Positions 18,912 through 57,398 of a DNA stretch of 58,022 nt are shown one piece after another. The position numbers and the translations under genes are program-made. Every line of letters begins with the position of its first letter. The first letter of the stretch is position 1. The stretch is from positions 1 through 58,022 of IMG/VR virus record IMGVR_UViG_3300012665_000938; one strand, written 5' to 3'. Under the pieces are notes generated by a model. It was given only the letters and a program-made list of their open reading frames with translations. It was not told the DNA's origin and did no database searches. The DNA comes from a virus. Lineage: Duplodnaviria; Caudoviricetes.

Positions 18912-19701
18912 ATCTGTAGAGGGAAACCTTCTTAGTTGTAGAGTCAACATCAATTTGTAGATTCTGCCACGAAGCGAACTCACGTATAGGAACCATCAAT
19001 CGTCCTTGAATCAGAACTGTGTTACAAGGAACCTTCTCTTCATCCCAATAAGGAATGGAGTCGAACGTCAAACGAACTTTAGTTACTTCACCATATATGG
19101 CTTCAAGACATTGACGAAGACCTGCGTACAGCCGACCATCGTGCGATACAGCAGTTACTTCATCTGGTCCAATATCAACTGTCCACGCAACCGTAGACAA
19201 AGTATCCTCTTCATACAGGTCAGACCATCTAAGGAAAACAATAGATGACTTAGAGCGACCTGTGTACATATCAGTGCGCTCAACAACCTTAGTGCCGTTA
19301 CGGCTACCGTCTGTGTTGCTGTTGCCTTCAATGGATGAGTAGACACCGTCCTTGAGTCCAGACACAAGCAAGATGTGTACTGCATCATTCTGGTTCTTGC
19401 GATTGAGGATAAGACCAATGTCACCTACCTCAGGTGTAGTGTGTACAATCTTCAGTTTCCTGCCACGTGCAAGCCATAGGTCACAGTCGGCAGACAATCC
19501 TAGATACCAATCCTTACCAGTCATATACTTCCAACGATTGGCTACTGCACTCATGTATGATGCACACCAGAAACTACCCACTGGTACGCCAACCGCCTTA
19601 TTCCAAACGTCGATGTGGAATCCCCGGTTGCTTCCTTCCGGGGACTCTGTCGTGCCAACCCACTCTCGTGCGATGTCAATGAACCGTTGTTTATTGGACA
19701 T
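18910..19701 (-). CDS. CHAP-domain endolysin with C-terminal copper-amine-oxidase-N (stalk)-like domain
   Basis: A...VG..E...GSN...WCA catalytic Cys, P.VGD, H, IEGN; C-terminal GRLMVPIREFA. GAGGAG RBS before ATG 19701. Confidence 0.85.
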   Translation of the reverse strand: MSNKQRFIDIAREWVGTTESPEGSNRGFHIDVWNKAVGVPVGSFWCASYMSAVANRWKYMTGKDWYLGLSADCDLWLARGRKLKIVHTTPEVGDIGLILNRKNQNDAVHILLVSGLKDGVYSSIEGNSNTDGSRNGTKVVERTDMYTGRSKSSIVFLRWSDLYEEDTLSTVAWTVDIGPDEVTAVSHDGRLYAGLRQCLEAIYGEVTKVRLTFDSIPYWDEEKVPCNTVLIQGRLMVPIREFASWQNLQIDVDSTTKKVSLYR

Positions 19702-22700: not shown

Positions 22701-25700
22701 ATTTCCCAATCATTGTCGTTGGTGAATATTTTCTCTGCTGCTACATCTGGTGACTCATGTGTATTGAAGTCTCTTGACCTTAGACCACCATACTGTGACC
22801 ACGACTGGGCATCACGCTTACGTGCGCTGAACAGTGTTACACCACGTCCACTAGCAAGTGTTGCAGGCGAGAACGAGTTATTACTATCAGTAATCTTCAG
22901 GTGACCAAACTGATTGTTAGCATCTTTGTAGATAGTATCGATGCGCTTGTCAACACCAACTACACCCGTCTTGATTGCATCAAGCGGTGGTAATCCAGTC
23001 TTGCGAGAATCCTTTGAAGAGAAGGTACTGTAGGCACTTCTACCAATAGTTTCAGACCACATACCCCAGATAGCCATTGGGTCTTGAGTAATAGACGCAT
23101 GAGCAGCAAAGGCTAGGTTATGTGAATGCTCACCACCAGATACAACCTGCACGTTTGCACGTATAGACTGATAGATAGCATCAATGACTTCAGAGTGCTT
23201 CAGTGGCTTTCCGTCAATAGTAGTAATGCCACTGTTCTGTAGTAATGGATTGTATGGGTCAACACGTGTATCTGGCTGGATAATAACCTTAGATGCACCA
23301 CGTGAATCAGGGAATCCAACTGTCAGTTCAAGGAACTTAAACTGCTTTGGTAGTTCCTTTATAAGTGCCGGATAAACCTTCTTGCTATCAGTGTTTGATA
23401 TGAACGTATCAGGCAACTTATTAAACTGATTACCAGCCTCAGTCCAACGCTCAAGCGTATCTGGAGCAACATTCATATCAAACTTAGCCGGTAGGTTAAC
23501 CGTCTTGCCACGAACAGCAGACAATGCACCTTCAATGGTTTGCCGAATCGTTACATCGAACTTAGGATTCGGGTCTACTCCGAAGAGGTTTGGTGCGGAG
23601 ATATTAAGGACATTACGCGCTTCATCGTAGTTGATGGCATACCCCCGACCATTTTCATTTCCGAAATTCCAGAGCCTTTCAGTAGACTGGACACCTTGAA
23701 CTGGAATATCTGCTTCAATGAATTTATCTGCGACTTGCTTAATGGCTTTACCGAAACTTTCGAGCGAGCCTTCATAGGACTTTCCTCTTTCCTCAAGATG
23801 GGTCATTGTCACAGACTTACGGTCTGGACTAATACGAATTGCAGGATACTCTTTCCGGATTGATGAATACACATCATCCGTAATTGCATCCGTTGAAGTG
23901 AATGTGATTGATGGCTCAACCGAATAACCCTTGTCGCTATACCCTAAAGGCTCAGTCTTGCCAGCCTGTGTATGTAGCAACAGGTTATCGATACCATTGC
24001 GTTGAACGAAGTCCAGTGCCTTCTTCAATGAACCGAGTGTGTCGGTTGCGTCAATGGTTCCATCAACAACAAGAACGTCATTGATTTCCAACGTACGAAT
24101 ATCAGCAGTCCCATCGAATGTACGATGTGCATCCGCAACTACACGGTCATCAACGAACTGCTTGATTACATCTCGTGGCACACCATCGTATGTTGCGTAA
24201 TGAGCAAATGCTTCAGGTGTTATCGAATGTGGATTAGAGTTACCTGCTATTCTCTGTGCTGCTTCTTTACGAAGTGTTGCGTCAGCACCACGTCTCCGAG
24301 ACTGGTACAGGACATTGCCTCCTGTGTTTCCAGCCCCACGTTGAGCATTCGATTGTCTCTCACGATTCTGTAGTTCCAGCGTACCCGTGTAGGTTTCAAG
24401 AGACTGGATAGTATTTGCGAGGTCTTTGAGTCCTGCTCTTGTCCATTCAAGTGTGTTGAGTTTGGATGTTTTTCCGCTGGCATCTTTATATGTATATTCC
24501 TTGAGGAATTGTCCCTCACGAAGTGAACCAACGATATTAATCCACTGGTTATAATCAGTATGACTTACGTCATTAGGTATGTTTGTTATGAGACCGTAAT
24601 TCAATGCACGGTTGGCAGCAGACATCGTACGGTTACTGAGACCTAGGAGATAACCCTTCCACTCAGTACTAGTCCGCTCCATACCATCCTTGTCCAACTT
24701 GATTATCTTGTCAACAAACGGAATAACACCATCCTTTGAATCGGTAATCCTATCTAGAAGACCAGATGGATTATCCTTCATGAGTCGTTCATTGGTATTG
24801 GTGTATGTTCCACGAAGACCAATGATAGGCGTTCGCACCTTTGTTGAGGAGTCAGTCTGTGTGCTGTAACCACTGACCCACTTGACCATCATTGAGCCTA
24901 ATTTAGGACTCATACCCTGAGTGATTCCACCTACACTAATAATCTCAGATGGCATAACAACTGTAGAGCCAAATGCATTCGCATTCTTAGTATCTGTGGT
25001 GATGATTGCTGAACTTACTGGGTCAAGTAATTCAACTGTAACCATAGGCTCATGAATCATACTGTCAGGAATAAGACCCGGACCCTTAGGCTTCTCCTTA
25101 GTCTTCAACACAGTTGCACGAACAAGTTTGCCGTCTATCTGAAGAGTTACTGGGATACCATCCCAAAGGAATACATTGTTATTGTCGTAAGGAACAGACC
25201 ACTCAAGGCGATTAGCCCTCCAGTTGACATGACCAGCAGCGTCCTTGAATCCATAGGTCTCTGCATATGCCTTCTGCATAAAACCACTTATCTTGCCCCA
25301 GATGTCATTAAGTCTAGCCTGACCAGATGCTGCACCACGCAACGATATAGGAGGTGTTCCACTGAGGAATGACTGTTCCATTGCGGTTGCAAACATCTCG
25401 TGCAACTCATATGGGATGTAAGACTCATTGAGTTTAGTTGGCTTACGTAGTGTCTTACCAAAGCGGGTGGCAAGTTCACTAGCCATATGCACAGGCATAT
25501 TGTCTAAGATTGCATGACTAATCTCGTGTACGGTAGTTCCGATATCAGAGTTGTTAGCCATAACGAATACAACCTGCTGACCTGCGTTTGTTCGCTCGTC
25601 AACAATAGTCGTGTATCCACCACGCTTCTCGAATATGTTGTCGTAGGCACTGTCCAACTTAGGACCGGCATCAATAACCTTGAACACAGGGATGTTCGTC

Positions 25701-28700
25701 TTGTACCTGTCGGCAACCATCTTCATGCGGACACGCTCTATGATGCTACGCCGTGCGTCATCACCAGTGATGTCCTCAAAAGTAAGACCCTTAGGTACGA
25801 AGTACTCTCCGCTTAATTGATTATAAAGAGTTGCAGATGAAGATGCCTCTGAATCAATAGCCTCCATAATGCTGTTGATGCGTGGCATATCGTATTGCTG
25901 TATCAATGCAGCAGCACGATTACGCCGTAGAGCAATCTTCTTTGCAGCCTTACTTAGGTTGTCGCTTATTGGCTCTGGGGAAAGAGGCTGTCGGCTTTCA
26001 GCCTGTGTTTTACGCTCTACAGGAATGATTGCTTCAACATCCTGCATTACCAACTGCGCTACGTACAAGTCACGATTTACAAAAGCGTGAATCATTTCAT
26101 CGTAGTAAGCAGCAACAGCCTTTGCAGCAGTAGTGGAATCAGCGTCACCCTTTACCTGACCACTGCGTACAAGCACATCCTTTAAAACAACTTCAAGTTC
26201 TTGACGATTCCTTGCCTTTGCAAGTACTTCATTGATATCGCCAACACCTTCTACAGATGCACGAATGCGAACAAGCGAGTCACCTTCAGCAACTGTTACA
26301 TCACCGGGCTGGACATTCTCAAGGTAACTTCCTTCATCTACTGCTTCAATGTCACCTTCAGCAATCATTGTCTCTTGAGTAGGAGTGAGTGTTACTCCTG
26401 CTTCAGCGAATACATCGAGTGCAACATCTGGAACGAATGAACCATCAGACACAATGTCGGCTGGTGTCATCTCACGTACTTCAAAGCCAGTTGATTCTGG
26501 TGCTACCTCTGCGGTTGAAGCCTCAGTAAATGCTTCAGGCGTAACAGGTACTACAGGTGCAGTAGTCTTACGAGCATCATATGAATCCCACTCACCACGT
26601 AATCTGCGTAGTTCATTTGTAATACTTGTTGTAGATAAACCACTGTCACGGGAAGCACCAGTAATTACGCTATTAATCCTGTCAAGGATTGGCTTAAACT
26701 TACCAGCACCAGAACTACCTGCCCTAGGAGTTGTATTGTATGTACTTAGTTCTGTGAAGAAGATATTGTCGGTATGTGGCAATTCTTCTTTAGGTATTGT
26801 CATGAAGTCTGGGTCATTAGTTTGCAGACTTCTGAGGTCACCATAGTAATTGTTTAAAAGGTCTGAACCATCCCGTAATTCCTGTTGACCATACGAATCA
26901 AGGATGTTCCTACTTGAACTCTTGTTTAACCAACCATCTGAACCAAAGCCAAAGAATGGATACCACTTACCGGGAAGAACAGCCTCACCAGTAGTTGCAT
27001 CAACCTTAGGGTTTTCACCGGAACTAAGATAGTAAAGAACATCCTGACCCTTGATATTAAGAATAGTAATAAATCGTCCACTGTGACCTACTACTTCAGG
27101 TATTCCAGTAACGCCATCAGTACGCTCAAGGTCAACAATCGCTGGTCCAGTAATCTGCGGGAACTGTTGAATAGCAACGTCTGGACTTAACTGAAGTTCA
27201 GGTCGGATGGCAACTACACCCGGATTGTCCATCGTTGTTACAGTTGATGGTGTGACCTGTGGCTCGGCTACTACAGGAGCAGGAGTTACCTCTGCCTCTG
27301 GTGTAGCAGTAGTTGGAGTTGCACCCTCCTGTGGGGTCGCTGTTGGCTCAACCTGAGCCTCAGCAGTAGCAGGGACTATAACTTCCTCATTGACCGCTTC
27401 ATCGACCTTAGCGAGAGCATCATCAATGTTCCTACGTAATCCCTCTGCTGTGTCAGGTCGCTCATTGGTTACAGGATTGACATCACGATTAATGAAGTCA
27501 ATCTGTGGAGTTACTTTTCCTTGAAGGCGATATGCAACTCTAGGGACCTGTACATCACGAACATCACCAATGGTGTTGTCAAGATACTTAGATACAGCAC
27601 CTAAGTCAGGAGACCCGTAATAACTAGTAATCTCTGCGCCACTAGTCTTGTTGAACCAACCACTCATTGGGTCGATGCCGAATACTGGATACCACTTGCC
27701 GGGTGGAACATCAGTCTTTCCACCGTATCCAGTGGATAGGTAGAACGGAATGCGAACACCGTTGATATCAGCGACTACGATTTTACGACCAGAGAAGTCT
27801 AAGATAATAGATTTACCACGAGTCTTGTTTAGCGTACGCTTTCCAGTTGCTGGGTCAATCTCATCACTAAGAGTTGCGGTCTCATAAGGAATCTTAGGAA
27901 ACTCAACTTCAACGCCATCGATGACAACGCCATCCTTGAGGCGATTCTCAATCTGCGCCTTGCTGGTAGCACGTGTCTTACGTTGCAGTGGTTGGATGTT
28001 CTGCGTATCTGGCTCAAGTGTAATCTCAGGCTTTACACTTGCAGGTGCTTCAGGATTGACAGTTCGCTTACGTCTTTGTTTTACAGTCTTAGGTGGAGCA
28101 GGTGTAACATCTGCCTCAGACTCAGCAACTACATCAGGGACAGTAGGTGTAGGCGTTGGAGCCGTAGCCTTGCGCTTACGTCCAGTCCTACGTGCAACAT
28201 TCTCTTCAGTAGTTGTAGGTGTAACTACTGGTTCAGCCTTGCGAATCTTCTGCATTGGAACAGAGGTCTTAAGGATAGAAGACTCTTGTACAATGAATGC
28301 GGGTTTGGTGGGTGCATCGGCATCAACGACCACTGGTCCGTAGGGTGAGTTGTCTACAACTACACCCATTCGGGATTGACCAGATGCATCCACGAACTCA
28401 ATCAGAGTTCCTTCATCAAAGGCATACTCTGCTTCTGCTCTAGTAGCAGCCAGCATCTCATTCGTTGCTGCCTTGATAGACGCATCAGCCTTAGCCTTGA
28501 TATTCTTAGCACTCTCACCAGCAGTGGCTAGGTCTCGCTTCTTATCAACAATCAGAGTCCTTGCACGTTCAGCACGTGATGCTTGCTCTGGTGTGAGCAA
28601 CATAGGATGATTCAAGTCCTTAGTCGTTACACGGTCAGCCGTTGCACGAATAGGACTATGGAACTCTTTATCTACAGTGTAGTTCGATGGGTCGTATGCA

Positions 28701-31090
28701 GGAATCGTACGAGTGTCGTAGATAGTTTGTGGTTGACCCATACGTTCTACGTTGACGTTAGGTACGACAATCATATCAACGCCAGACGTAGGTGATGGCA
28801 ACTGCATCACAACGTGATTCTCATCTACCTTAGAGACAATACGTCCGGGGACAAGAGTATCACCCATCCAGAACTCATTCTGGAAGTTGTTCTTCAGTTC
28901 AGGATTACTTAGGGTCTGAAGGTCAAAGTTCTTTAGGATGTCACGCTGTACGTCTGACTTTACATAACCAGTGGTATCGGATGGCTTGATACCAAACTCC
29001 TGCATTGCACTAAGTGCTTTCTTCTGATTAGCAGGGGCAAGGGTATCAACACTAACTGTGTTATACGTTGATGTTCCATCAGGTCGGATTACATTAATCT
29101 TAGCGAAACCGTCATCAGTGAAGCCAGCCAACTGCTCGAAGGAATCTCCAACTTTCTCAGCCTTTAGTGCTGCTGGTCCTTTGACGAATTCTTTTACACG
29201 TGCGAACGTACCTGCATCAGGTGCAATACGTGAAACGGCGTTGTATACATTATCTCGTAGGTCAAGGTCACTAGGACCCTTACCCATACGAATATCAAGG
29301 TAGTCACCGGGCAGGTCGTTGACAGACTTAACTGTAGAAGTAAAGCCTTCACGATTAATCTTTGCAATCCGACCACGTCCCATTGGAATGATGTTCTGTG
29401 GTAGTTCAAGACGCTCAGTTACATCAGTCCTGCCAGCGGTAGGAACATTGCCAGTAGGCATTCCCGGAGTAACCTTTGAAGGTACATTTGTAGGAGTTTT
29501 AAGTTGACCTAGTGGACCAAATGTAGGTGTTGTAGTGTCACCTATCGCACGTAATCCAGCCTCACCAATTGCATTACCAGCCTTACCAGCAACATCAAAC
29601 AACCGACCCGCTGGTCCACGTCCTTCAAAGAGTGAACCAAACAATGTCTGTGCCATTATCTGGTAGAGAGGAGTCTCTGGTCTGCCTTCAAGTTTATCTT
29701 TCTCTCGCTGTGCAATTGCTTGACGCAAGTCAGTCATGCCTTCAATACTGCGTTCTGCAATATCAGACATAAACTCTTGACCTTCAGCACTACGTGTGAA
29801 TCCACGAACACCACCACGTGCAATATCAAGATTTAACTTCTGTCCAGCCTTAGATGTAATAGCACCTTCAAGAGTCCCATCAACAAAGTTGTAGAACTTT
29901 GAGTTGGATATACGACCTGCCATTCCTGTTAGTGGAGCGGAAGGAACTATTGACTTTGGATTGATACCAGCATTAATAAGCGCACGTTCAGCACGTGCAA
30001 TATTTGCACCAGTCTTGCCAGCAGCAAGACCACCCTTTAATAAAGTCAGACTAGGAAGTGTAGGTGTTGCAACTGCAAAGTTTGCAGCCATTTGCCCACC
30101 TATTGCACCATATGGGTTTGCAGCCGTTGCTTCAGCCATCTGACGCTTACGTGCTGCGTAAACATCATCACCTAAGATAGCCTTCTTGACTGATGCCTGA
30201 CCCTTCTGAGCCAACTCTGTAGCGTAGTAAGCAGTTGGCATACCGACTGCTATAGCAGCAGCAGCAGGACCTAATCCAGCAGTGAATGGTGCAGTAGGAG
30301 CAGCAAGTGTAGCAGCAGCACCACCAGTTAAGATACCTGCGCCAGTACCTATGACAGATGGAAGTACACTCTCTTCAAGGGTCTGCCCAAAAATACCTGC
30401 TTGCTCTACACCTAAAGCAAATGGATTATCAAGTTCAGGTTGCTTGTATGTATAAACCTTACGAGCAATCTCATCTGCTGATACACCAGCACCACGCATG
30501 ACTGCTGCTTGCATATCTTTGGATGCACCAACAAATGGAGCAGCCATTGCACCAGCAGTAAGACCCATTAATGTACCGGGCTTGAATAGTGCAGATTGAC
30601 CACGCTTCTGCTCAATGTCTCTTGCTTGCGTTTGGATAGCAGGAGCAATCTGCTCCTTAAGTTTTACACGCTGAGAGATAACGTCAGATAGGTTTGACTC
30701 TGCACCTAGAGAACGACCAGTGAAGATGGGACCATTAATGTCACCACCTTCCATAAGACCGCCGGTTTTCTTTTGAAGGTCGAACGGACTAAGTTGAGTA
30801 GTCCGCTTAATCTTGACTTCTTTACCATTCTGAATGACAGGAACTTCAACTGTCTTAGTAATGGGTTGACCTTGTTGGTCAAGAACAGGAATCTTCTGAA
30901 TGGCTTGTATGCGCTGGTCTGCAACGCCACGGTATGTCTTAGCCTCAGAATCACTAAAGAAGCCTTGAGCCTTACCGTACTCAATGCCCCTGCGATAGAT
31001 ACCTAAGAGATTTGTATCTAAGAATGTGCGGTCATCTTCCGACAGTTCTTTGATTAACCTACGAAACCTATCTTTAGGGGCTTCAGCCAT
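19691..31090 (-). CDS. Giant internal virion / large polyvalent protein
   Basis: 3,799 aa, last of three ejected-type genes; Gly/Ala hydrophobic N-terminal segment, HEISH zincin motif, duplicated domain, ART-like motifs. Confidence 0.8.
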   Translation of the reverse strand: MAEAPKDRFRRLIKELSEDDRTFLDTNLLGIYRRGIEYGKAQGFFSDSEAKTYRGVADQRIQAIQKIPVLDQQGQPITKTVEVPVIQNGKEVKIKRTTQLSPFDLQKKTGGLMEGGDINGPIFTGRSLGAESNLSDVISQRVKLKEQIAPAIQTQARDIEQKRGQSALFKPGTLMGLTAGAMAAPFVGASKDMQAAVMRGAGVSADEIARKVYTYKQPELDNPFALGVEQAGIFGQTLEESVLPSVIGTGAGILTGGAAATLAAPTAPFTAGLGPAAAAIAVGMPTAYYATELAQKGQASVKKAILGDDVYAARKRQMAEATAANPYGAIGGQMAANFAVATPTLPSLTLLKGGLAAGKTGANIARAERALINAGINPKSIVPSAPLTGMAGRISNSKFYNFVDGTLEGAITSKAGQKLNLDIARGGVRGFTRSAEGQEFMSDIAERSIEGMTDLRQAIAQREKDKLEGRPETPLYQIMAQTLFGSLFEGRGPAGRLFDVAGKAGNAIGEAGLRAIGDTTTPTFGPLGQLKTPTNVPSKVTPGMPTGNVPTAGRTDVTERLELPQNIIPMGRGRIAKINREGFTSTVKSVNDLPGDYLDIRMGKGPSDLDLRDNVYNAVSRIAPDAGTFARVKEFVKGPAALKAEKVGDSFEQLAGFTDDGFAKINVIRPDGTSTYNTVSVDTLAPANQKKALSAMQEFGIKPSDTTGYVKSDVQRDILKNFDLQTLSNPELKNNFQNEFWMGDTLVPGRIVSKVDENHVVMQLPSPTSGVDMIVVPNVNVERMGQPQTIYDTRTIPAYDPSNYTVDKEFHSPIRATADRVTTKDLNHPMLLTPEQASRAERARTLIVDKKRDLATAGESAKNIKAKADASIKAATNEMLAATRAEAEYAFDEGTLIEFVDASGQSRMGVVVDNSPYGPVVVDADAPTKPAFIVQESSILKTSVPMQKIRKAEPVVTPTTTEENVARRTGRKRKATAPTPTPTVPDVVAESEADVTPAPPKTVKQRRKRTVNPEAPASVKPEITLEPDTQNIQPLQRKTRATSKAQIENRLKDGVVIDGVEVEFPKIPYETATLSDEIDPATGKRTLNKTRGKSIILDFSGRKIVVADINGVRIPFYLSTGYGGKTDVPPGKWYPVFGIDPMSGWFNKTSGAEITSYYGSPDLGAVSKYLDNTIGDVRDVQVPRVAYRLQGKVTPQIDFINRDVNPVTNERPDTAEGLRRNIDDALAKVDEAVNEEVIVPATAEAQVEPTATPQEGATPTTATPEAEVTPAPVVAEPQVTPSTVTTMDNPGVVAIRPELQLSPDVAIQQFPQITGPAIVDLERTDGVTGIPEVVGHSGRFITILNIKGQDVLYYLSSGENPKVDATTGEAVLPGKWYPFFGFGSDGWLNKSSSRNILDSYGQQELRDGSDLLNNYYGDLRSLQTNDPDFMTIPKEELPHTDNIFFTELSTYNTTPRAGSSGAGKFKPILDRINSVITGASRDSGLSTTSITNELRRLRGEWDSYDARKTTAPVVPVTPEAFTEASTAEVAPESTGFEVREMTPADIVSDGSFVPDVALDVFAEAGVTLTPTQETMIAEGDIEAVDEGSYLENVQPGDVTVAEGDSLVRIRASVEGVGDINEVLAKARNRQELEVVLKDVLVRSGQVKGDADSTTAAKAVAAYYDEMIHAFVNRDLYVAQLVMQDVEAIIPVERKTQAESRQPLSPEPISDNLSKAAKKIALRRNRAAALIQQYDMPRINSIMEAIDSEASSSATLYNQLSGEYFVPKGLTFEDITGDDARRSIIERVRMKMVADRYKTNIPVFKVIDAGPKLDSAYDNIFEKRGGYTTIVDERTNAGQQVVFVMANNSDIGTTVHEISHAILDNMPVHMASELATRFGKTLRKPTKLNESYIPYELHEMFATAMEQSFLSGTPPISLRGAASGQARLNDIWGKISGFMQKAYAETYGFKDAAGHVNWRANRLEWSVPYDNNNVFLWDGIPVTLQIDGKLVRATVLKTKEKPKGPGLIPDSMIHEPMVTVELLDPVSSAIITTDTKNANAFGSTVVMPSEIISVGGITQGMSPKLGSMMVKWVSGYSTQTDSSTKVRTPIIGLRGTYTNTNERLMKDNPSGLLDRITDSKDGVIPFVDKIIKLDKDGMERTSTEWKGYLLGLSNRTMSAANRALNYGLITNIPNDVSHTDYNQWINIVGSLREGQFLKEYTYKDASGKTSKLNTLEWTRAGLKDLANTIQSLETYTGTLELQNRERQSNAQRGAGNTGGNVLYQSRRRGADATLRKEAAQRIAGNSNPHSITPEAFAHYATYDGVPRDVIKQFVDDRVVADAHRTFDGTADIRTLEINDVLVVDGTIDATDTLGSLKKALDFVQRNGIDNLLLHTQAGKTEPLGYSDKGYSVEPSITFTSTDAITDDVYSSIRKEYPAIRISPDRKSVTMTHLEERGKSYEGSLESFGKAIKQVADKFIEADIPVQGVQSTERLWNFGNENGRGYAINYDEARNVLNISAPNLFGVDPNPKFDVTIRQTIEGALSAVRGKTVNLPAKFDMNVAPDTLERWTEAGNQFNKLPDTFISNTDSKKVYPALIKELPKQFKFLELTVGFPDSRGASKVIIQPDTRVDPYNPLLQNSGITTIDGKPLKHSEVIDAIYQSIRANVQVVSGGEHSHNLAFAAHASITQDPMAIWGMWSETIGRSAYSTFSSKDSRKTGLPPLDAIKTGVVGVDKRIDTIYKDANNQFGHLKITDSNNSFSPATLASGRGVTLFSARKRDAQSWSQYGGLRSRDFNTHESPDVAAEKIFTNDNDWEIIPDIVNQMSNRNSALFQMFGDNRDHMVEYLMEAVLAKVNITGNRRAGVKALQELDVLDEGSRTANVTLGSYVKAYIQRLDDITDVNNKPVVNPVNGKAKLYHASNALINITDGSLVSANTISRRNGNMDDTLVHRQGENEGEGLGGTPAVVSLTYSFDYAVDIAKVASNLRNVLIDSKELDTWRSAATRRVKLALTTKDPGKSFINDRIRRMSGIDNKSVPSEYKSMVEELINDNHGLDILMMTNARMQHPDELVIDNYYDAIGEIETYMPSFRRRDPEVSTKLSATMNWLANNKAPQSVKDTTGVNPVYAIAYAQWKSKAYTREAINDRWENTKELLDAGGGLRISAVETLASVELNYEALGLPATTIFPASSGKLASLSKEELMNRSIGILEYETDASKLFEHYEPEKEVRTHAPSSLGTPTAMYNPYGKPMEAPTTNTYKTLWSARPVKPPVREVTTVDDDGTVKVVRTQDPAEVPSKVKEALKITDWVMKPYGFVNDLARNSVGGDWSAILIQNWVTANPIENPKLFAHQFMIGLKMMKPNLGYQKPDGTIINQNGMLGREEFHKLGDELRSNPFYELGVEAGLTLNTHRIDERLAELRKKDPRATIMNVDELGVDKDLSPTHQLLKHQPLQGASERTMAMTKDYIKMMKFTQGMQHYIEIGYNPKSSKFTEVAKDLAGMLNVAQGDVKFSSDKEMDDLIGSNLRNLMFAPRWLASRFMFDPILRSVYTTFSPEKGTKLLELNRLYKRYGVIDPYVRAENNRLFMKSAGMFAFIGFLLSRFNPFGEHGTEVEVKGLGSSIRVGDYVFKAPGGVMYQMEIMSTLIGGLETKPGESSEERLTRTADQLKMLIMSKASPAVSLANDMITGRNIIGEPSRETYKPLQTYWNAVTRPALLEMGIDLPAPKLSNLVADRLFYLWAQDAMDTYDSVSGRGGQYPGAEAGAVAALAFLGGRVRYSPKELKWQYKANDNDNPVPGWEYTIFGADEDEFFEEQARNVQ

Positions 31091-47052: not shown

Positions 47053-49302
47053 TTACTCATTGCCAATAGTAGGCGATTGGTTTTGCATTATTTGATTTCG
47101 CAAATTCTCTTCCGAAACCTTCACAATGCTCTTTGCTGCATCGTTCTCCTGAGTAAGGCGAGAACGCTCACGCATCTTCTCAATGTCAGCCATCATTTTC
47201 GCTTCAATCTGCGCTTGACTCTTCTGTACATCAAGTTGTGTCTGCATCTGGGCTGCTTCTGGGTCAAACTTCTGACTCTTCTGCGATTCCATCTGCTGTG
47301 CTTGAGCCATTTGCTCTTGCATCATCTGTGCTTGCTGTGCCATTGCCTGTTCCTGCATATTCAAGTGATTGATAATCTTTGCAGTCTCTGGCAGTGTCAG
47401 CATACTAACAACAAGTTTATTGGTTGCTGGGTCTTGTGGGTCACCAAACAATCCCATCTGTCGCATAGCGATGACCTTCTGAAGTTTCTGGTCAGGGCTA
47501 TCCTCTTGAGTGGACCCCGGTACATAAACAATTCTGTACTGACCACCACTACGAATGTGTTCAAAACTGATTACACCTTGCTCAAGTTTTTGCATCGGAT
47601 TGGCTTGTTCATCAACATTACCAATGAATGGTGCTACACCAAATTCTTCAACAAGTGCAATTTCCCACTCTTTAATCTTTGCTGCTGATATCTCAATGTC
47701 AGCACGAACATAACTATGTTGAGTGTTGTCGGCTCTCTGTAGAAGTTGCACTGCTTCCGCTGGTGTACCGGCAGGTGCTTGTCCTTGAGATACATCATGC
47801 AATCCTGCAATATCCATCATGTCTTTTTCAAGATATTGAAGTAGAGGGAATAGGTCACCACCAATACCCGGCGCACGAGATACAACAGGTGGCTGTGAAC
47901 CTACGTTGTAGTAAATCTTTTTGTATGTGCGGGTCTCATCGAGAGAGTCATCACCCATATGATTAAAGGCATCAGCACCTATGTTGGACAACCTTTGAAC
48001 CATAACATAATCACGCTGTTGTTCAAACTGCTCAAGCATACGTGAGTACACACGGTTATAAGTCTGCTGTAATGAACAGAGGTCAAACCCTAGGGAGTGT
48101 CCATATGGAGTACCACTACGTGGTTGCCATCGAAGTGGGATGAATGGGAACTCGTCCTTCTTCTTGTATAGCCACGGTCCAGCGTGAAGCAAGACTGTAT
48201 TAGTGCTAACTATATATCGCCCAGATGGATACTCTTGTGACGGTTTTTCCCAATATTCATAAACAACTGATGCACGTTTTCGTGAATCACTTTGTGCAAG
48301 ACGAGCCGTAGATGGAGGAGTCCAACCATTACCTGAACCATTGCCACCTTCAAGGTAAGCATCAATATACGATGCATTGTTACCCATAAGCGCATCAGGT
48401 GAAACTAACTTACCAACGTCACCGTAGTTGTCTACAAACCACGAGAGCGGTTTAGCAGACGCATGAATAAGCCACCTAACATCTGCATCTCGTTTGGCAG
48501 TTGGGTCAAGGAATATATCGAATGCTGGAAGAATTTCTTCCTTGACATCTCCGATTTCAATATTCTCATAACCAGTAACTTCTCCAGAATCAGGAGAGAA
48601 GTACGGCATAATCTGTTGACCACGGGCATCCCAGTAAATCTTTAGATATGAAGTTCCGCATACACAAGCCCAGCGAACACGTTCTTTCAACTGAGTCTCA
48701 CGACTAAACTTACGATTGTAGTGACCACAGATGTGGTTGGCTTCTTCAGATGCTAGGAGGTCACGTTGGTTCTGCGAAAGGGGAACTGCTCTTGCGTCTG
48801 GACCTACCTGTGTCAACTTACCAACAACACCATCAATCAATGGACGCATCTTATTGATAGTGATATATCGGTTAGCCTCATTAGGATTCTGAAGGTTAAT
48901 TAGGTTACGTGTTTGACTACTAATGGTAAACCACTGCCGACCTTCAAAGAAGGCAATAGCCATAGCCCATTCAAGTTCCATTTCACGCCTAGCACGATAT
49001 GCAAGTTCAAACTGCTCTTTAACGAATCGAGTTACTTTACGCTTCTCTTCATCTGGTGCATCAGGTTGTACTTTCCATTCGTTTGCATTGTGGTCAATGG
49101 TAAGGTTAGTATCTTCAGTAGTAGTTTGTGCGTTAGTAAGTTTCTCACTTCCGGGAATGCCAGAAACAAGACGCTTTTCCATCGCCATAACCTTTGGTTC
49201 ACCCTGCTTAGATAACCGCTCGGCAATCTGCGCTGCGAAACCCTGCATGACGTTCATGCCTTGAGTATTCTTTTCTCTACTCTTAAACAGCGGTCTTCTC
49301 AT
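47053..49302 (-). CDS. Portal protein
   Basis: AFFEGRQW, INKMRP, VYEYW, Q..YNR, DIAGLHDVSQG motifs; Q-rich barrel-like C-terminus. Confidence 0.9.
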   Translation of the reverse strand: MRRPLFKSREKNTQGMNVMQGFAAQIAERLSKQGEPKVMAMEKRLVSGIPGSEKLTNAQTTTEDTNLTIDHNANEWKVQPDAPDEEKRKVTRFVKEQFELAYRARREMELEWAMAIAFFEGRQWFTISSQTRNLINLQNPNEANRYITINKMRPLIDGVVGKLTQVGPDARAVPLSQNQRDLLASEEANHICGHYNRKFSRETQLKERVRWACVCGTSYLKIYWDARGQQIMPYFSPDSGEVTGYENIEIGDVKEEILPAFDIFLDPTAKRDADVRWLIHASAKPLSWFVDNYGDVGKLVSPDALMGNNASYIDAYLEGGNGSGNGWTPPSTARLAQSDSRKRASVVYEYWEKPSQEYPSGRYIVSTNTVLLHAGPWLYKKKDEFPFIPLRWQPRSGTPYGHSLGFDLCSLQQTYNRVYSRMLEQFEQQRDYVMVQRLSNIGADAFNHMGDDSLDETRTYKKIYYNVGSQPPVVSRAPGIGGDLFPLLQYLEKDMMDIAGLHDVSQGQAPAGTPAEAVQLLQRADNTQHSYVRADIEISAAKIKEWEIALVEEFGVAPFIGNVDEQANPMQKLEQGVISFEHIRSGGQYRIVYVPGSTQEDSPDQKLQKVIAMRQMGLFGDPQDPATNKLVVSMLTLPETAKIINHLNMQEQAMAQQAQMMQEQMAQAQQMESQKSQKFDPEAAQMQTQLDVQKSQAQIEAKMMADIEKMRERSRLTQENDAAKSIVKVSEENLRNQIMQNQSPTIGNE

Positions 49303-51180: not shown

Positions 51181-51925
51181 CTACAACCTCAGCATCAATG
51201 ATGTCATTGTTATCGTCGTACACTTTCAGTAACTTATCGATGCCAACCTTAATAGCAGCAAACTCATCTGCATTACGGACAGATGCTTTTACGATGTTAA
51301 CTACTTGCATAACAAGACTAAACGCTTGGTCAACCTCAAGGGTATATGCTTTTGTCTGAAGCAATCTTTGTTCTGCTTCAACAATACTAGTTCTCTTTTC
51401 AATAAGACCGAGAACTTCCTTAGATGCATTCGCTTCTTCCGAAGTAGAAACAATCGCATCGCCCAATGCTTTGAAGTGCATCATAAAGTCTTCACTATGC
51501 AGGTTAGATTCGCACTGTGAATACAACTTACGGATGGAATGTAACTGCTCAACGGTTACACCTTCTGCTGCTAGTTCAGCACGGTGGTCGATAAGAGCAG
51601 TAATGTAGGCAGCGTCATCTCGTAGAGACCATAGGTCAGGGTCTTCACGTAGTTCATTGATTCGAGATAGTAATTGACCACCAACACGTGCAAAGCGTGA
51701 ACGACCCACACTCTTAAGTCCAGTCGTAAAGTTAATCGTTTCAAGATTAGCCTCCTTAGGTTTACCACCGTGTGTGACACAGAAGTTAGAACCCTTAATG
51801 GCTACGTTCTTACACTTGACAACGCCAACACCACGTACAATTTCTGCATCGCAGACTTTGACTAATGTGCCGTTACGGTCTTTAAATCTGTTGCCGTCTT
51901 TCTCAATTACTGGGTCACCCTTCAC
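51155..51925 (-). CDS. terS: Putative terminase small subunit
   Basis: C...CKN.A..G..FC..HGG and N..TG motif, helical body, IIDAEVV tail; directly upstream of terL. Confidence 0.65.
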   Translation of the reverse strand: MKGDPVIEKDGNRFKDRNGTLVKVCDAEIVRGVGVVKCKNVAIKGSNFCVTHGGKPKEANLETINFTTGLKSVGRSRFARVGGQLLSRINELREDPDLWSLRDDAAYITALIDHRAELAAEGVTVEQLHSIRKLYSQCESNLHSEDFMMHFKALGDAIVSTSEEANASKEVLGLIEKRTSIVEAEQRLLQTKAYTLEVDQAFSLVMQVVNIVKASVRNADEFAAIKVGIDKLLKVYDDNNDIIDAEVVDGTEANSQ

Positions 51926-53691: not shown

Positions 53692-54627
53692 TTACTTCTT
53701 CTTTCCAAATCCCATAGCCTTTGACATTGCAGACTGACCTGCATATGAAGACTTGTTGGATGATGCATACGGATTCATAGAGAACGATGGACCACCAGAG
53801 TTGCCAGAGTACTTAGTACGGCGGAATCCGGTTGCCTCATCTGCTGCATAGAGTGCTGCTGCACCTTCTGCCACTGGACCAAGTGCTGCTGCCTTAGCCA
53901 TCATTCCACCACCACGTGGCTGTGCCTTTGCTGCTGTAGCACGGGCTGCTAAACGACCACGTGCATTTGCTGCGTTTGCTGCATCACGAGCCGTAACGTC
54001 TGCACTTTTTGCAAGACGAACATTGTTTGCTGTCTGTGAGCGGAGACGCTTAATAGTTGGTTCAATCTTATCCATATCAGCACGATATGCGTCATTTATA
54101 CGGTAATTGTTTTTATCCATTACCTTTTTAGAAACTTCACGCTCACGTGCATAACCTGTTTTTTGTGCTTTTAAACCAGATGGCGTACTCTGTGTTTCCC
54201 TAGGTTGCCTAACTGCAAGTGGGTCACGCCGTCCTTCATTAATACCTGCTTGTTTGCGAGTAATGAATGGTTGTGGTTTACCAGCAGCAGTAGCACGGGC
54301 TGCAAGACGCTCACGTGCAATACGTGCATTGCTTGCATCACGTGACGTTACTGCTTTTGAATCAGCCATTGCCTCAACATTCATTTTTTTCTGAAAACTT
54401 TTTACATCACCTTCACTGACTGCACGTTCAAATTTCTTATCTATAGACGAATCATATGGATTATCGCGTCTGGCATTTTGCCACTCAGAATAAATAGGTG
54501 ATACGTTTTTAGCAAAATCTTTTTGAAATGCTTTTACACCTTTGCGTTGACCACTATGTGTCAAAGTCCCATCGGGCGTTTCAAATATTAACCCTTTTCG
54601 TCGGGTAATGAACTTTTCGTCTGGCAT
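53692..54627 (-). CDS. Basic A/R/K-rich protein with internal duplication
   Basis: VT.RDA.NA..AR.RLAARATAA occurs twice; GAGG RBS before 54627. Confidence 0.7.
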   Translation of the reverse strand: MPDEKFITRRKGLIFETPDGTLTHSGQRKGVKAFQKDFAKNVSPIYSEWQNARRDNPYDSSIDKKFERAVSEGDVKSFQKKMNVEAMADSKAVTSRDASNARIARERLAARATAAGKPQPFITRKQAGINEGRRDPLAVRQPRETQSTPSGLKAQKTGYAREREVSKKVMDKNNYRINDAYRADMDKIEPTIKRLRSQTANNVRLAKSADVTARDAANAANARGRLAARATAAKAQPRGGGMMAKAAALGPVAEGAAALYAADEATGFRRTKYSGNSGGPSFSMNPYASSNKSSYAGQSAMSKAMGFGKKK

Positions 54628-54628
54628 A

Positions 54629-54898
54629 CTAACTACCTCTGTAGATTTTAGTTGCAGCAGTGCGCTGCTTGTTACTGCCATAAATTACTAGGTCACCTTG
54701 AAGACCTGCGTGTTCTACGGCTTCTGCTTCCATTGCTTTTCGCAAGGTAGGCATTGAACCCAACTTATGCTCTTTCATTTCCATAGCACGAATCTGTTGG
54801 GCAGTAGGCTTTTGCTTGAGACCGTGTTCTTGTTGTTCAAGACTCATCAATTTAGCCATCGAAAGATGGTTCAGATGTTTATTCATCTGGTTAATCAT
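54629..54898 (-). CDS. Small protein with E..EH repeats
   Basis: LEQQEH, MEMKEH, AEAVEH; TGATG coupling. Confidence 0.7.
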   Translation of the reverse strand: MINQMNKHLNHLSMAKLMSLEQQEHGLKQKPTAQQIRAMEMKEHKLGSMPTLRKAMEAEAVEHAGLQGDLVIYGSNKQRTAATKIYRGS

Positions 54899-55146
54899 CA
54901 GCAGTCCCACGCTCTCAGTGATTTATTGATACGTGAGTTTGGGTCACGTGCTGTTTTAGTAGATGTATTCTTAGCCTTCATGCCTTCCATTCTTGAACAG
55001 AATGATTTGCGTCTGCCAGCATCTGCTTTGGTTTTAGGGTTAGGTGCAGGAGGTTTAAGGTTAGCACCCGTGGTTTTCTTGAAATGCGCTCGACCAGCAG
55101 CATTCAATCCACCCTTAGGGTCTTGATATTTTTTTAGTACGCCCAT
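54898..55146 (-). CDS. DUF6321-like basic protein
   Basis: PKGGLNAAGR...G.NLKPP...RRKSFCSRM.G...PNSRINKSLRAWDC; TACAAT 7 nt upstream of the ATG. Confidence 0.85.
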   Translation of the reverse strand: MGVLKKYQDPKGGLNAAGRAHFKKTTGANLKPPAPNPKTKADAGRRKSFCSRMEGMKAKNTSTKTARDPNSRINKSLRAWDC

Positions 55147-55200
55147 ATCAGGGATTGTACACTTATGCATTTCTTTATGCACTCCTGATACAATTGACAT

Positions 55201-55554
55201 ATGGCTCAACGAATGATAACCAGTACAGATGACCCACTATACATTAATGCTATAGTCCATCTTGCCAATCTTCTTGAAGAGAAGACATTTGGTACACCAC
55301 TAGGTGTATCGGCTGCGTGGAAAGAGAAGTTTAACGGAAGCATCTTCTGCCCTGAAGGATGCATCAATGGACGTTGTCCCGGTCATAAACTAATCGTTAA
55401 TCTTGCTGACATTCGCAAGCATCCACAGTTCAAGTTCCTTGTATACCATTCTGAGGTATATAGTAACGGCAAGACACATAATGTCATCTACTTCTATGAG
55501 GATGACGATAAGGCTGAACGACAGTTCAATGAATTGTGTAAGAGGGGCAAATGA
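55201..55554 (+). CDS. Hypothetical protein with Cys/His cluster
   Basis: CPEGCINGRCPGH; leaderless TGa-TACAAT-6-ATG. Confidence 0.75.
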   Translation: MAQRMITSTDDPLYINAIVHLANLLEEKTFGTPLGVSAAWKEKFNGSIFCPEGCINGRCPGHKLIVNLADIRKHPQFKFLVYHSEVYSNGKTHNVIYFYEDDDKAERQFNELCKRGK

Positions 55555-55760
55555 ATAGCCTGACCACACGTGAGTTGCAAGTGTTGCATTTACTGGCAGT
55601 AGATGCTTTGTCCGTAAAAGACATTGCTGAATCACTTAAAATCAGCCCACGTACGGTCCACTTTCATTTACAGAACTGTTACAAAAAGTTGGGATATGAA
55701 TTCAATGCACGTAATCAAACACGTGTAGTCATTGAATATCGAACATATGTAGGTGTATAA
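55551..55760 (+). CDS. LuxR/GerE-type HTH regulator
   Basis: LTTRELQVL.L......KDIA..L.ISPRTV.FHL.N.YKKL. Confidence 0.92.
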   Translation: MNSLTTRELQVLHLLAVDALSVKDIAESLKISPRTVHFHLQNCYKKLGYEFNARNQTRVVIEYRTYVGV

Positions 55761-55766
55761 TTAATC

Positions 55767-55842
55767 GTCTATAGTTCCCCTCCCATTACTTAGACTCCTT
55801 CCGAAAAGGTAAAGACCAGTAACCCCTTCTGCTGGTCTTTAT
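55767..55842 (+). ncRNA. Candidate small RNA C with C-rich loops
   Basis: TTGAAT-18-TATAAT upstream (55732-55761); three hairpins with loops containing TCCCCTCCC, CCGAA and AACCCCTTC. Confidence 0.5.
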
Positions 55843-55846
55843 TATT
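55811..55846. terminator. Intrinsic terminator between convergent genes
   Basis: AAAGACCAGT...GCTGGTCTTT stem followed by ATTATT. Confidence 0.8.
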
Positions 55847-55863
55847 GTCAACTTATCTGCACT

Positions 55864-56274
55864 TTATCTGCCAGTAGAACCTAGTCCACCTTTGCGTTCA
55901 CTATCCATTGTTATAGGCGTATAGATGGATGTATCACATTGTGCGAAGACTAGTTGGGCAATGCGGTCACCCACTTTGATTTCAAATGGTCTATTGCCAG
56001 CATTCTTAAGGATAACCTTGACCTCATCCTTGTAGTCCGAGTCAATGATTCCCGGTGCATTAGCAACAAACACGCAGAACTTTGCAGCCATACCTGAGCG
56101 ACTACACACCATAGCGTAGTGACCAGCAGGGATGTTCACTGATACCCCAGTGTTAATGACTCTCCAGTCACCGGGGACAATACGGTCATCGTGACAAGCA
56201 GATAAATCAAATCCTGCTGCGCCACTTGTTGCACGAATTGGAACGACTGCGTCAGGATGTCGTAGTTCAAACAT
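55864..56274 (-). CDS. dut: Trimeric dUTPase
   Basis: AAGFDL, RSG, GIIDSDY, GDRIAQL, RKGGLGSTG motifs; GGAG RBS. Confidence 0.97.
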   Translation of the reverse strand: MFELRHPDAVVPIRATSGAAGFDLSACHDDRIVPGDWRVINTGVSVNIPAGHYAMVCSRSGMAAKFCVFVANAPGIIDSDYKDEVKVILKNAGNRPFEIKVGDRIAQLVFAQCDTSIYTPITMDSERKGGLGSTGR

Positions 56275-56923
56275 TTTCCATCTCCAGTTCTTTGACTGCT
56301 TGTGCAATCAACGGAAACTCTTCCTCAAATAAAACATGAATCTTGTCTGCTAGGTCAATGTGTTCTAATTGTGTTCCATTACCACGTCTTACTTCTAAGT
56401 AATGAATCCACGAGCGAACACTGCCCTTCATAAACATACGTGTAGGAGTACATTCAGGAAGAATCATACGTGCTGTCTCTTTAGCAACACCCTTTGCTAG
56501 GAGGTAATTATATGTTTCATACACTCTGTCAAGCGTGACAGAAACAAGGTTGTCAAACTCAAGCCCATCCATTTCATTAAGTGGGACTGATTTTTGGCGG
56601 TTCTTTGGATGAGTACCACGCATAGGTGGTGCAACGAGAAGCCCTCTAAATTCTGCATATCTTTGACTAAACTCCTGAAAATCAAATGAGGCATGACGTA
56701 GTATCTGCTGACTAACTGCACGTATGGTGTGTATCTCAACAGACCATTCAGCCTGTGAAAAGATAGACCAATGCTTATTCTTGATACAGTACTTGATTAG
56801 TCGCTTGTTTTCTTCTTCAGTGCGATTGTCCTGATTGGGTGATGAAACACGAGCGCAGTAACATATTTCTTCTTCTGCATCTGGTGTTACCCACCTTGTC
56901 TTAGCAGTGTTGAAGTCAAACAT
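56267..56923 (-). CDS. thyX: FAD-dependent thymidylate synthase
   Basis: ARVSS, HWSIF, QILRHASFDFQEFSQRY, ETAR..LP, TQ.EH. Confidence 0.97.
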   Translation of the reverse strand: MFDFNTAKTRWVTPDAEEEICYCARVSSPNQDNRTEEENKRLIKYCIKNKHWSIFSQAEWSVEIHTIRAVSQQILRHASFDFQEFSQRYAEFRGLLVAPPMRGTHPKNRQKSVPLNEMDGLEFDNLVSVTLDRVYETYNYLLAKGVAKETARMILPECTPTRMFMKGSVRSWIHYLEVRRGNGTQLEHIDLADKIHVLFEEEFPLIAQAVKELEMENV

Positions 56924-56936
56924 AATATAATCCCTT

Positions 56937-57398
56937 ATGAGACCTACGTACGAATCTCAATCAGATAGAAATTGGCAGTCACTAGCCAAACAAAAGATTG
57001 AGTCTAAACTGTTCATGCTGTTCGGTGACAGTACGGTTATGGAGGAAGGACCCTTCAGTAAACACGACTTCACAATAATAGCGAATGGCTGTGAGGCAAT
57101 AGGAGAGTACAAGAGACGTACTCACAAGTTTGGCACTTATCCAGATGTAACCCTCAGTGAATCAAAGTGGAACCACCTACGAAAGTATAAAGGTTCCGCT
57201 TTTATTGTTTTTGAGTTTACGGACGGCATATATCTTGGCGATGTTACAAATATGCCTAGCCTTACGGCAAAACTGGGAGGTCGCACCCTCAGGACTAGGG
57301 ACCCCCTAGATATCCATATGTGTGTACAGATACCTATTGAATACCTAGTCCCGTTGAGGCTATGGGTTCCCCAGTTTATTCAGCAAACGGGTCAGTAA
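56937..57398 (+). CDS. Putative PD-(D/E)xK nuclease
   Basis: HDF......IGEYKRR......YP...LS..KW pattern; TATAAT 5 nt upstream of the ATG. Confidence 0.6.
   Translation: MRPTYESQSDRNWQSLAKQKIESKLFMLFGDSTVMEEGPFSKHDFTIIANGCEAIGEYKRRTHKFGTYPDVTLSESKWNHLRKYKGSAFIVFEFTDGIYLGDVTNMPSLTAKLGGRTLRTRDPLDIHMCVQIPIEYLVPLRLWVPQFIQQTGQ

Follow-up and report, generated by a model that had tools for sequence, protein, structure and literature searches.

Does the 103-nucleotide (nt) spacer between a LuxR-type helix-turn-helix (HTH) gene on the plus strand and a convergent dUTPase gene on the minus strand hold only the terminator that such a pair of genes requires, or also a gene of its own? The spacer belongs to a stretch of 58,022 bases, the whole of the IMG/VR virus record IMGVR_UViG_3300012665_000938, referred to here as the window. 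A small RNA (sRNA) with loops complementary to the ribosome-binding sites (RBS) of the phage's own early genes had been proposed for this place from the letters alone. After following up this original prediction, we favour, as the probable reading, that positions 55767 to about 55846 of the plus strand encode a trans-acting sRNA whose loops would cover a Shine-Dalgarno (SD) variant private to the early genes (their tag), lowering the translation of all of them together. What speaks for such an anti-SD RNA is a predicted promoter and terminator of its own, loops antisense to the early RBS modules, persistence in 41 of 62 related loci and compensatory changes in its stems; one proposed contact, that of the motif ACTCCT, did not rise above chance.

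The predicted RNA and the early genes

The elements of the predicted RNA gene are the following.

55732-55737, plus strand: -35 element TTGAAT, inside the last LuxR-type codons; 10 of 12 promoter matches, 18-nt spacer
55756-55761, plus strand: -10 element TATAAT, overlapping the LuxR stop codon TAA (55758-60)
55767-55846, plus strand: predicted small RNA of about 80 nt, with its putative start at G55767, 6 nt past the -10, and its putative 3' end in a U-rich run
55767-55795, plus strand: hairpin 1, with stems 55767-71/55791-95 and 55773-75/55788-90
55776-55787, plus strand: hairpin-1 loop UUCCCCUCCCAU, 12 nt, in which CCCCUCC (55777-83) complements GGAGGGG
55796-55807, plus strand: single-stranded linker UCCUUCCGAAAA, adjoining and overlapping ACTCCT at 55794-99
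55808-55843, plus strand: terminator hairpin of 14 base pairs (bp), loop ACCCCUUC, U-rich tail, common to the convergent dUTPase gene
55821-55829, plus strand: terminator loop AACCCCUUC, exact complement of GAAGGGGTT

The TTGAAT-18-TATAAT promoter-like site lies where it had been placed. This position falls in the last 29 nt of the LuxR-type gene. The predicted transcript (55767-55846, plus strand) contains no ATG and no open reading frame (ORF), and the fold of 55761-55850 reached a minimum free energy of -23.3 kcal/mol (z = -4.65), with none of 200 shuffles folding as well. In this fold the 14-bp terminator stem comes with UUUAUUAUU on the plus strand and with UUUACCUUUU on the minus strand. 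It belongs to the only hairpin with a U-rich tail between the LuxR and dUTPase stop codons (55808-43), which is probably a bidirectional terminator. With a putative promoter in the end of the upstream gene and a terminator in common with the upstream mRNA, the predicted gene has the layout of 3' untranslated region (3' UTR)-type sRNAs, a class that includes DapZ and MicL and has its own promoter inside the upstream gene. No Rfam family reached its gathering score at the locus; at E <= 10 over 55700-55900 the best match was to an unrelated family, with 21 bits against the 56.8 needed, and the C4, RsaE/RoxS and CsrB/RsmZ types were not listed. The spacer varies little among the DNA contigs of four runs. 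At position 55779, contigs from two lake-water runs (X3 and X4) show a variant that has lost a single C from the CCCC stretch in hairpin 1's loop, in an L019-like LuxR background.

Recurrent words before plus strand ATGs were counted without reference to the RNA. The top 9-mers were TTGGAGGGG...AGGGGTTCA, and the tag of the window is (G/A)(G/A)AGGGGTT, found before nine early genes. AGGGGTT occurs at 10 places on the plus strand, nine of them 2-5 nt before an ORF start (3176, 3399, 4256, 4929, 6059, 7156, 7615, 8813 and 10096), and its sole minus strand copy is the terminator loop of the RNA gene. GGAGGGG has seven matches against 2.82 expected on both strands, six of them on the plus strand (in the cassettes at 6045, 7145, 7604, 8802 and 10085, and at 15412), with the only minus strand copy at 55777-83. 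GAAGGGGTT has three matches against 0.27 expected, at 3163 and 4916 on the plus strand and at 55821-29 on the minus strand. Fold and motif counts thus agree with the proposal that hairpin 1 exposes CCCCTCC, the complement of GGAGGGG in five early cassettes, and the terminator loop is, as had been described, the exact reverse complement of GAAGGGGTT before genes 3176 and 4929. The third contact fared differently. The complement of the AGGAGT RBSs does occur at 55794-99. As a word, however, AGGAGT is common, with 42 matches where 28.5 are expected, and does not rise above chance, and the linker found no early-gene site at <= -14.5 kcal/mol. The sixth plus strand GGAGGGG lies in a G-rich repeat (GGGGGAGGGG..GGGGGGGAGGG) at 15397-15441, inside the ORF 14921-15895 and not at a gene start; the repeat reaches -38 kcal/mol with the whole RNA in RNAduplex.

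Whole-RNA RNAduplex energies and whole-genome duplex counts proved too noisy and were replaced by exact-run counts, motif strand counts and loop-only energies. Counts of exact complementary runs of at least 9 nt fail to set the window RNA apart (plus strand 26, minus strand 21); its signal consists of 7-9-nt G+C-rich matches. The hairpin-1 loop is predicted to pair with GGAGGGG over 7 bp at -15.1 kcal/mol in five cassettes. The terminator loop is predicted to pair with GAAGGGGUU over 9 bp (-15.1 kcal/mol), with GGAGGGGUU over 9 bp including one G-U (-14.6 kcal/mol) and with AAAGGGGUU over 8 bp (-11.7 kcal/mol); it matches the modules GGAGGGGTT (9 bp, one G-U) and AAAGGGGTT (8 bp). When 719 candidate ATG sites were ranked by pairing with the unpaired segments of the RNA, the seven strongest cassettes took ranks 2-8. 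For the terminator loop, seven sites were found against 0.11 with shuffled letters and 0.12 with random genomic pieces, and none of 100 controls of either kind scored as high. The predicted targets are listed below, with loop energies in kcal/mol and ORF lengths in amino acids (aa).

3163-3178, plus strand: predicted target, GAAGGGGTT module plus the ATG of an early 62-aa ORF; terminator loop -15.1
3386-3401, plus strand: weaker predicted target, AAAGGGGTT module and ATG of a 266-aa ORF (phrog_2554, unknown function); terminator loop -11.7
4243-4258, plus strand: weaker predicted target, AAAGGGGTT module and ATG of a 108-aa ORF; -11.7
4916-4931, plus strand: predicted target, GAAGGGGTT module and ATG of a 109-aa ORF, sigma-70-type promoter ahead; -15.1
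6045-6061, plus strand: predicted target, GGAGGGGTT module and ATG of an 89-aa ORF; hairpin-1 loop -15.1, terminator loop -14.6
7145-7158, plus strand: predicted target, GGAGGGGTT module and ATG of a 134-aa ORF, promoter ahead
7604-7617, plus strand: predicted target, GGAGGGGTT module and ATG of a 105-aa ORF, promoter ahead
8802-8815, plus strand: predicted target, GGAGGGGTT module and ATG of a 114-aa ORF
10085-10098, plus strand: predicted target, GGAGGGGTT module and ATG of a 168-aa ORF, promoter ahead

The target proteins are small, and six of the seven strongest have no PHROG family, as is typical of early genes. The early cassettes (window 3124-10085, e.g., 7107-7160, 7565-7620 and 10047-10100) share a promoter with TTGACA or TTGCAC, an 18-nt spacer and TATCAT with TG upstream; the promoter spacer holds an inverted repeat with a CACACCGTACAGTGTG-like word, and the RBS module follows about 9 nt past the -10. 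This inverted repeat looks like an operator, for which the LuxR-type protein is a candidate binder.

Put together, the host sigma-70 RNA polymerase would transcribe an RNA of about 80 nt from the promoter in the end of the LuxR-type gene, and the transcript would end at the terminator in common with that gene, as a 3'UTR-type sRNA with its own promoter. It would fold into a 5' hairpin and a terminator hairpin, both with C-rich, unpaired loops, and these loops would base-pair with the private SD/leader module (G/A)(G/A)AGGGGUU that stands 2-5 nt ahead of the start codon AUG in nine early genes (3176-10096). Covering of the RBS would then make 30S binding and translation of the whole early set drop together, possibly with mRNA decay as the next step, and genes with other leaders or none would be spared. 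We infer the production of the RNA, its pairing in the cell, the repressive outcome and the timing from sequence.

Loop, module and structure in related phages

Covariation of loop and RBS in relatives had been named beforehand as a test, and in a sister clade module and loop have indeed both changed and match each other. The early genes there carry AAAGGTAGGTAGGTATG and the hairpin-1 loop reads AUACCUACCUACCUU; early modules AGGTAGGTAGGT-ATG are paired with the matching loop ACCUACCUACCU. When the RNA of a relative was compared by BLAST with five whole relatives' records, its loop gave extra short matches on the opposite strand, which are early-gene starts of the form gaaAGGTAGGTAGGT-ATG. The top recurrent module found de novo in the genomes G001, G002 and G003 is GAAAGGTAGGTAGGTATG. 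The sister module is present on the plus strand at 13, 16 and 6 places, respectively, of which 11, 11 and 4 directly precede ORFs, and the minus strand copies of AGGTAGGTA (2, 3 and 1) are all inside the RNA gene. The complement of the tag is therefore confined to the RNA gene in each of the four genomes (the window, G001, G002 and G003). For the G001 loop AUACCUACCUACCUU, the predicted duplex with the module extends into the AUG, comprises as many as 15 contiguous bp and reaches -25 to -30 kcal/mol, and in G002 the linker CUACCUUUCAU complements the 5' half of the module (6 sites versus 0.37).

Neither clade contains the module of the other. At predicted duplex energies <= -15 kcal/mol, the window RNA reached 7 of 260 of its own plus strand start regions, 0 of 209 in G001 and 0 of 230 in G002, while the G001 RNA reached 14 of its own 209 start regions and, in G002, which is of the same clade, 19 of 230, versus 0 of 260 in the window; minus strand start regions gave 0-4 sites in the same comparison. 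If the model is true, the early genes of the L020 clade would be expected to carry GGGAGGGG-type modules and those of the L034/L036 clade (loop ACCUGCCUACCU) AGGTAGGCAGG modules, and the window RNA should be inactive on AAAGGTAGGTAGGT-ATG leaders and the G001 RNA on GGAGGGGTT leaders. Several sister-clade modules begin ATG AAA GGT AGG TAG (G001 1980-2006; G002 160-184 and 59885-59909, the former in window orientation). The ATG-led module is a four-codon mini-ORF located some 7 nt downstream of a TATACT -10 box; its stop comes 2 nt ahead of the real ATG. This mini-ORF may be leaderless, with coupling to the early gene that follows.

The spacer is 97-99% identical in the close IMG/VR relatives (L017-L019), and the LuxR gene goes down to 83% in L019. 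Other patches in these relatives are equally conserved, so that they are not decisive alone. The protein of orf117, the gene upstream of the LuxR-type gene, has five relatives at 54-86% identity. Alignment of the orf117 relatives (A2) and a scan of metagenome and viral contigs gave 62 loci (L017-L078), which include seven groups in which the same stretch occurs twice. Most of them retain the gene order DUF6321 (minus), orf117 and LuxR (plus), spacer, dUTPase and ThyX (minus), and the state of the slot is distributed as follows.

41 of 62 loci: sigma-70-type promoter, 5-6 nt, GTCT(G/A) hairpin with a 12-19-nt C-rich loop, linker, terminator hairpin
2 of 62 loci: divergent element of the same build
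13 of 62 loci: slot present in a different arrangement, without the element
6 of 62 loci: locus ends before the slot

Because promoter, C-rich-loop hairpin, linker and terminator are kept in these 41 loci, the locus appears to be more than a terminator. The 42 copies of the RNA, the one of the window included, amount to 15 distinct sequences with one architecture, and all fold alike. In the 17 aligned sequences the -10 box GTATA(A/C)T and GTCT are invariant (17/17), with a -35 in the relatives of TTGACA, TTGCCA or TTGCAG at 16-nt spacing. The C-terminus of the LuxR-type protein is unrelated between clades, with the stop codon on the -10, in the spacer or before the -10. In 17/17 sequences the -35 lies among LuxR codons and the -10 either coincides with the stop or comes directly after it. 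Since the -10 is invariant while the LuxR stop moves, the predicted promoter seems to be conserved for its own sake, independently of coding. A subclade has a 90-aa minus strand ORF inserted between the RNA terminator and the dUTPase gene (L031:3675-3947, likewise L032, L034, L036 and L060-L065); the spacer there measures 320-327 nt and the RNA gene is unchanged.

A covariance model (R1), built from the promoter-anchored alignment, scored the window RNA at 72.9 bits (E 1.7e-14) and gave 21 matches at E <= 2.6e-13, four of which are the same stretch in two sources; each lies in the slot behind the LuxR gene. It found no second copy in the window, and neither G005 nor the loci that lack the slot element gave a match. 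The divergent G004-type element gave the same weak match (E 0.15) in both its sources, and a weak match in L046 (E 0.3) is probably noise. In the model-fitted alignment A5, 94.4% of cells are paired versus 26-42% with the partners slid, 9 of 17 pairs change on both sides versus 0-3 when slid, and none of 500 shuffles reached the observed covariation score. Two-sided changes affect 4 of 6 pairs in helix 1, where 98.3% of cells are paired, and 5 of 11 pairs in helix 2. Hairpin 1 is kept in all 15 distinct versions, with A-U as pair 5 for the window and L020 and G-C for all other versions. Both helices are also predicted by RNAalifold on a separate MAFFT alignment. These compensatory base changes support both stems.

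Competing explanations

A number of observations weigh against a dedicated repressor of the early genes. On the side of the gene, 13 of the 62 loci have the slot without the RNA, the L027 promoter (-35 TTGCAG) was not called by a simple scan, and promoter-like sites are common in the region (three found in 54500-57000 versus 5.8 expected from shuffles). Some relatives have no U-rich tail after the terminator stem; a simple terminator scan flagged the one of L031 but passed over those of the window, L023 and L027, and the 55808-43 hairpin would be needed as a terminator for the convergent genes anyway. Alignment A5, being fitted to the model, favours pairing counts. On the side of the targets, the window pairings are short (7-9 bp), the linker adds nothing above chance, and the 8-nt terminator loop cannot make 9 bp without opening its own stem. 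The control for hairpin 1 is moderate, with 5 sites versus 1.38 for shuffled letters; out of 100 shuffles, 3 attain that count, as do 5 out of 100 random genomic pieces. In the sister clade, no recurrent complement was found to the terminator loop UACUCCCA.

The comparison between clades has similar weak points. Only two independent loop/module states can be compared, the L020 clade (both loops CCCCUCCC) being represented without its early region. G005 lacks the RNA and has no antisense copy of its own module AGGAGACAGACATG anywhere in its genome, which speaks for the model; it does carry modules AGGAGACAGAC-ATG, however, and repeated early modules can therefore exist where the RNA is absent. 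The G004-type element matches only a generic AGGAGGTT at two or three gene starts, and no repeated module was found in G004. As observations on these two genomes, G005 repeats the early module (T)AGGAGA-ACAGAC-ATG on the plus strand at 2817, 3873, 4138, 8984, 60202 and 61504, with GACAGAC words occurring 29 times on that strand. A short self-complementary stretch of G004 (51324-51348 in window orientation), which does not coincide with a gene start, includes GGAGGTTAGGTT, whose 12 nt are exactly complementary to the loop that the G004-type element carries at 47600-47667.

Among the alternatives, a genuine RNA whose pairing with the early modules has an outcome other than repression is unlikely, if worth keeping in mind; that outcome might be stabilisation or activation, the guiding of an RNase or action against co-infecting relatives with the same tag. 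The pairing evidence is silent on the sign of the effect; the modules resemble good SD variants, without self-structure to relieve; and the privacy of tag/loop pairs to their clades would suit discrimination between phages. However, the pairing covers the SD, and in the sister clade also the first AUG bases, and no inhibitory leader structure was seen that pairing might open. Pairing of this kind blocks initiation in c4 and in the icaR 3'UTR, according to the passages on them in PMC12197685 and PMC3868564, respectively.

We regard it as decidedly unlikely that there is no independent sRNA and the element is only the 3' UTR of an orf117-LuxR mRNA, its promoter-like site being unused. The element does stand directly behind the LuxR stop codon with the same terminator, and the abundance of promoter-like sites in the region fits this explanation. 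Nevertheless, the -10 and -35 keep a fixed distance from the hairpin in 17/17 sequences, though the LuxR C-terminus and stop differ, and in two of the three relatives subjected to a promoter scan (L023 and L031) an 11/12 promoter stands at the slot as the sole match in 500 nt. A cis pairing like that of icaR was rejected: the LuxR start region of the window reaches only -12.0 kcal/mol, and the LuxR and orf117 start regions of the relatives have no AGGTAGG module, which leaves such pairing unsupported.

That the locus is a plain convergent-gene spacer, whose terminator works in both directions and whose complementarity to the RBS is due to chance, appears highly improbable. Convergent genes do require a terminator, C-rich words match any G-rich SD, the matches in the window span only 7-9 nt, and one minus strand GGAGGGG is expected by chance, given the 2.82 for both strands. 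This reading would leave unexplained why promoter and 5' hairpin are conserved, why loop and module have changed jointly and why the complement is exclusive to the locus in four genomes, as well as the 15-nt exact match in G001. We give a very slim chance to an action of the shared word on DNA, either as a protein site before each early gene that is inverted in the spacer or as the remnant of an inverted cassette. An inverted copy is the same site on double-stranded DNA, and the early cassettes are repeated promoter/operator units. Against this, the word borders on the start codon in every case, as an SD does, its spacer copy is always in the loop of a hairpin with compensatory stem changes behind its own promoter, a second single-stranded stretch in G002 complements the other half of the module, and no cassette flanks accompany the spacer copy.

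The alternative raised originally, a minus strand RNA with GGA motifs (GGGAGGGGAA and AAGGAGU in the window) that would sponge CsrA, has a negligible probability: the minus strand fold has z = -0.48 with 59 of 200 shuffles as good, no promoter-like site was found on that strand of the spacer, the hairpin-1 loops of the relatives read AGGUAGGUAGGU there, without GGA, and Rfam gave no match of the CsrB/RsmZ type. Silencing of host translation, which had been suggested as well, is doubtful. The anti-SD is CCUCC, and the loops of the sister clade do not match the canonical SD. Two further candidates were discarded, a small ORF, for which the minus strand AAGGAG-N8-ATG opens only five codons, and a Rho-loading (rut) site, which a C-rich, G-poor RNA would fit and which leaves the exclusive complementarity unexplained.

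Genomic setting, known systems and meaning

The genes around the predicted RNA are the following; beyond the dUTPase gene come ThyX, a PDDEXK nuclease and SSB.

55201-55554, plus strand: orf117, neighbour of the LuxR-type gene
55551-55760, plus strand: LuxR/GerE-type HTH gene, 69 aa (Pfam GerE, E 4e-15), with the RNA in its 3' UTR position
55864-56274, minus strand: convergent dUTPase gene (Pfam dUTPase, E 1.6e-30), its end 20 nt away from the terminator hairpin

Since the contig of a 98% identical relative (L017:5814-6351) continues from the last bases of the window into its first 538, the genome is either complete or circularly permuted. A blastn search of 55100-56400 against GenBank phages gave no match, and the window terminase gave only partial matches there, 28-31% identical; because of this, the phage seems to have no cultured relative, and hence no host can be assigned from relatives. 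A single ORF of 3,799 aa occupies 19691-31090 on the minus strand. In front of orf117 there is no SD, and in 7/7 loci inspected a TAnnnT hexamer, which reads TACAAT in the window, has its end 6 nt ahead of the ATG (window 55170-55203; L020, L023, L025, L031, L033, L034 and L070 at ~2970-3003). The divergent DUF6321 gene is likewise without SD, with TACAAT, 6 nt and ATG. The mRNAs of both genes look leaderless, which fits the shift away from SD-led early genes that had been suggested for this phage. Repression, a link with a second RNA named 'small RNA B' in the original prediction and an early-to-late switch are things we infer.

The closest known case is the c4 RNA of P1 and P7, and the anti-SD RNAs with C-rich loops are closest in mechanism. 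Loop/target pairs of c4 differ between related phages (heteroimmunity), and c4 controls one operon (ant) in temperate-phage immunity, from the same transcript as its target. By base-pairing with the region of a phage mRNA where ribosomes bind, the loops of this antisense RNA (Rfam C4, RF01695) block its translation, as stated in the parts of PMC12197685 that deal with it. Like c4, the window RNA would be phage-encoded, with loops complementary to the ribosome-binding region of phage mRNA and with loop/target pairs that differ between related phages. Unlike c4, it has no match to the C4 covariance model, has a predicted promoter of its own 5-12 kilobases from its targets, and faces a tag common to nine or more early genes; targets (3163-10098) and RNA (55767-55846) have other genes on both strands between them and are thus not one transcript.

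The cuckoo RNAs of Alphaproteobacteria (CcsR1-4, alpha-r14) have two to four adjacent hairpins, each loop with a C-rich, anti-SD-like CCUCCUCCC, in the description given by the relevant part of PMC4615179. Adjacent hairpins with C-rich loops, two in this case, are a shared trait, but CCUCCUCCC is absent from the window and from all 15 distinct versions (the window has CCCCUCCC and ACCCCUUC, the relatives ACCUACCUACCU), and cuckoo RNAs are cellular, with targets that are not a private tag. In Firmicutes, sRNAs of the RsaE/RoxS and RNAIII types occlude the G-rich SDs of several mRNAs with C-rich unpaired motifs. Those are host-encoded and act on generic SDs, whereas the window loops follow a phage-private SD variant and have no Rfam match. 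In the icaR mRNA of Staphylococcus aureus, UCCCCUG of the 3'UTR pairs with the SD, blocks initiation and makes an RNase III substrate, as reported in the portion of PMC3868564 on this contact. The 3' UTR position and the C-rich motif are similar here; icaR, however, pairs with its own mRNA, and the window element has its own predicted promoter, with no module at the LuxR start of the relatives.

T4 RegA is a translational repressor. The T4 endoribonuclease RegB cuts GGAG in early mRNAs, according to the passages on it in PMC1702504. Both would be functional analogues, in that a phage shuts off its own early mRNAs at the SD, but they are proteins, without homology to the RNA. By sequence, motif and layout, the window RNA does not appear to be a member of the c4, cuckoo, RsaE/RNAIII, icaR or RegA/RegB kinds, and literature searches, covering articles without their supplements, turned up no account of a phage sRNA directed against an RBS common to early genes. 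The timing of phage genes is usually ascribed to transcription factors, RNA polymerases and a few mRNA-acting proteins (T4 RegA and RegB), and the known phage antisense RNAs (c4, sar, OOP and P4 CI) each control one locus in temperate phages.

In the present case, a family of uncultured lake phages probably keeps a gene for a non-coding RNA of about 80 nt that would lower or stop early protein synthesis, and one small RNA appears matched to a tag common to the whole early set, with both changed together between lineages. Tentatively, and with somewhat more doubt than belief, we propose a translational addressing made only of RNA, in which early genes would carry a lineage-specific tag, one RNA with several anti-tags would silence the early regulon and leaderless or untagged middle and late genes would go on, an arrangement corresponding to T4 RegA/RegB at the level of RNA. 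With tag and anti-tag co-evolving like lock and key, the RNA may also silence a superinfecting relative with the same tag, a c4-type heteroimmunity in a lytic-type phage. If true, this would be a regulon-wide translational off-switch made of RNA and a source of natural orthogonal, programmable SD/anti-SD pairs, and it would make the early regulon of uncultured phages readable from sequence alone.

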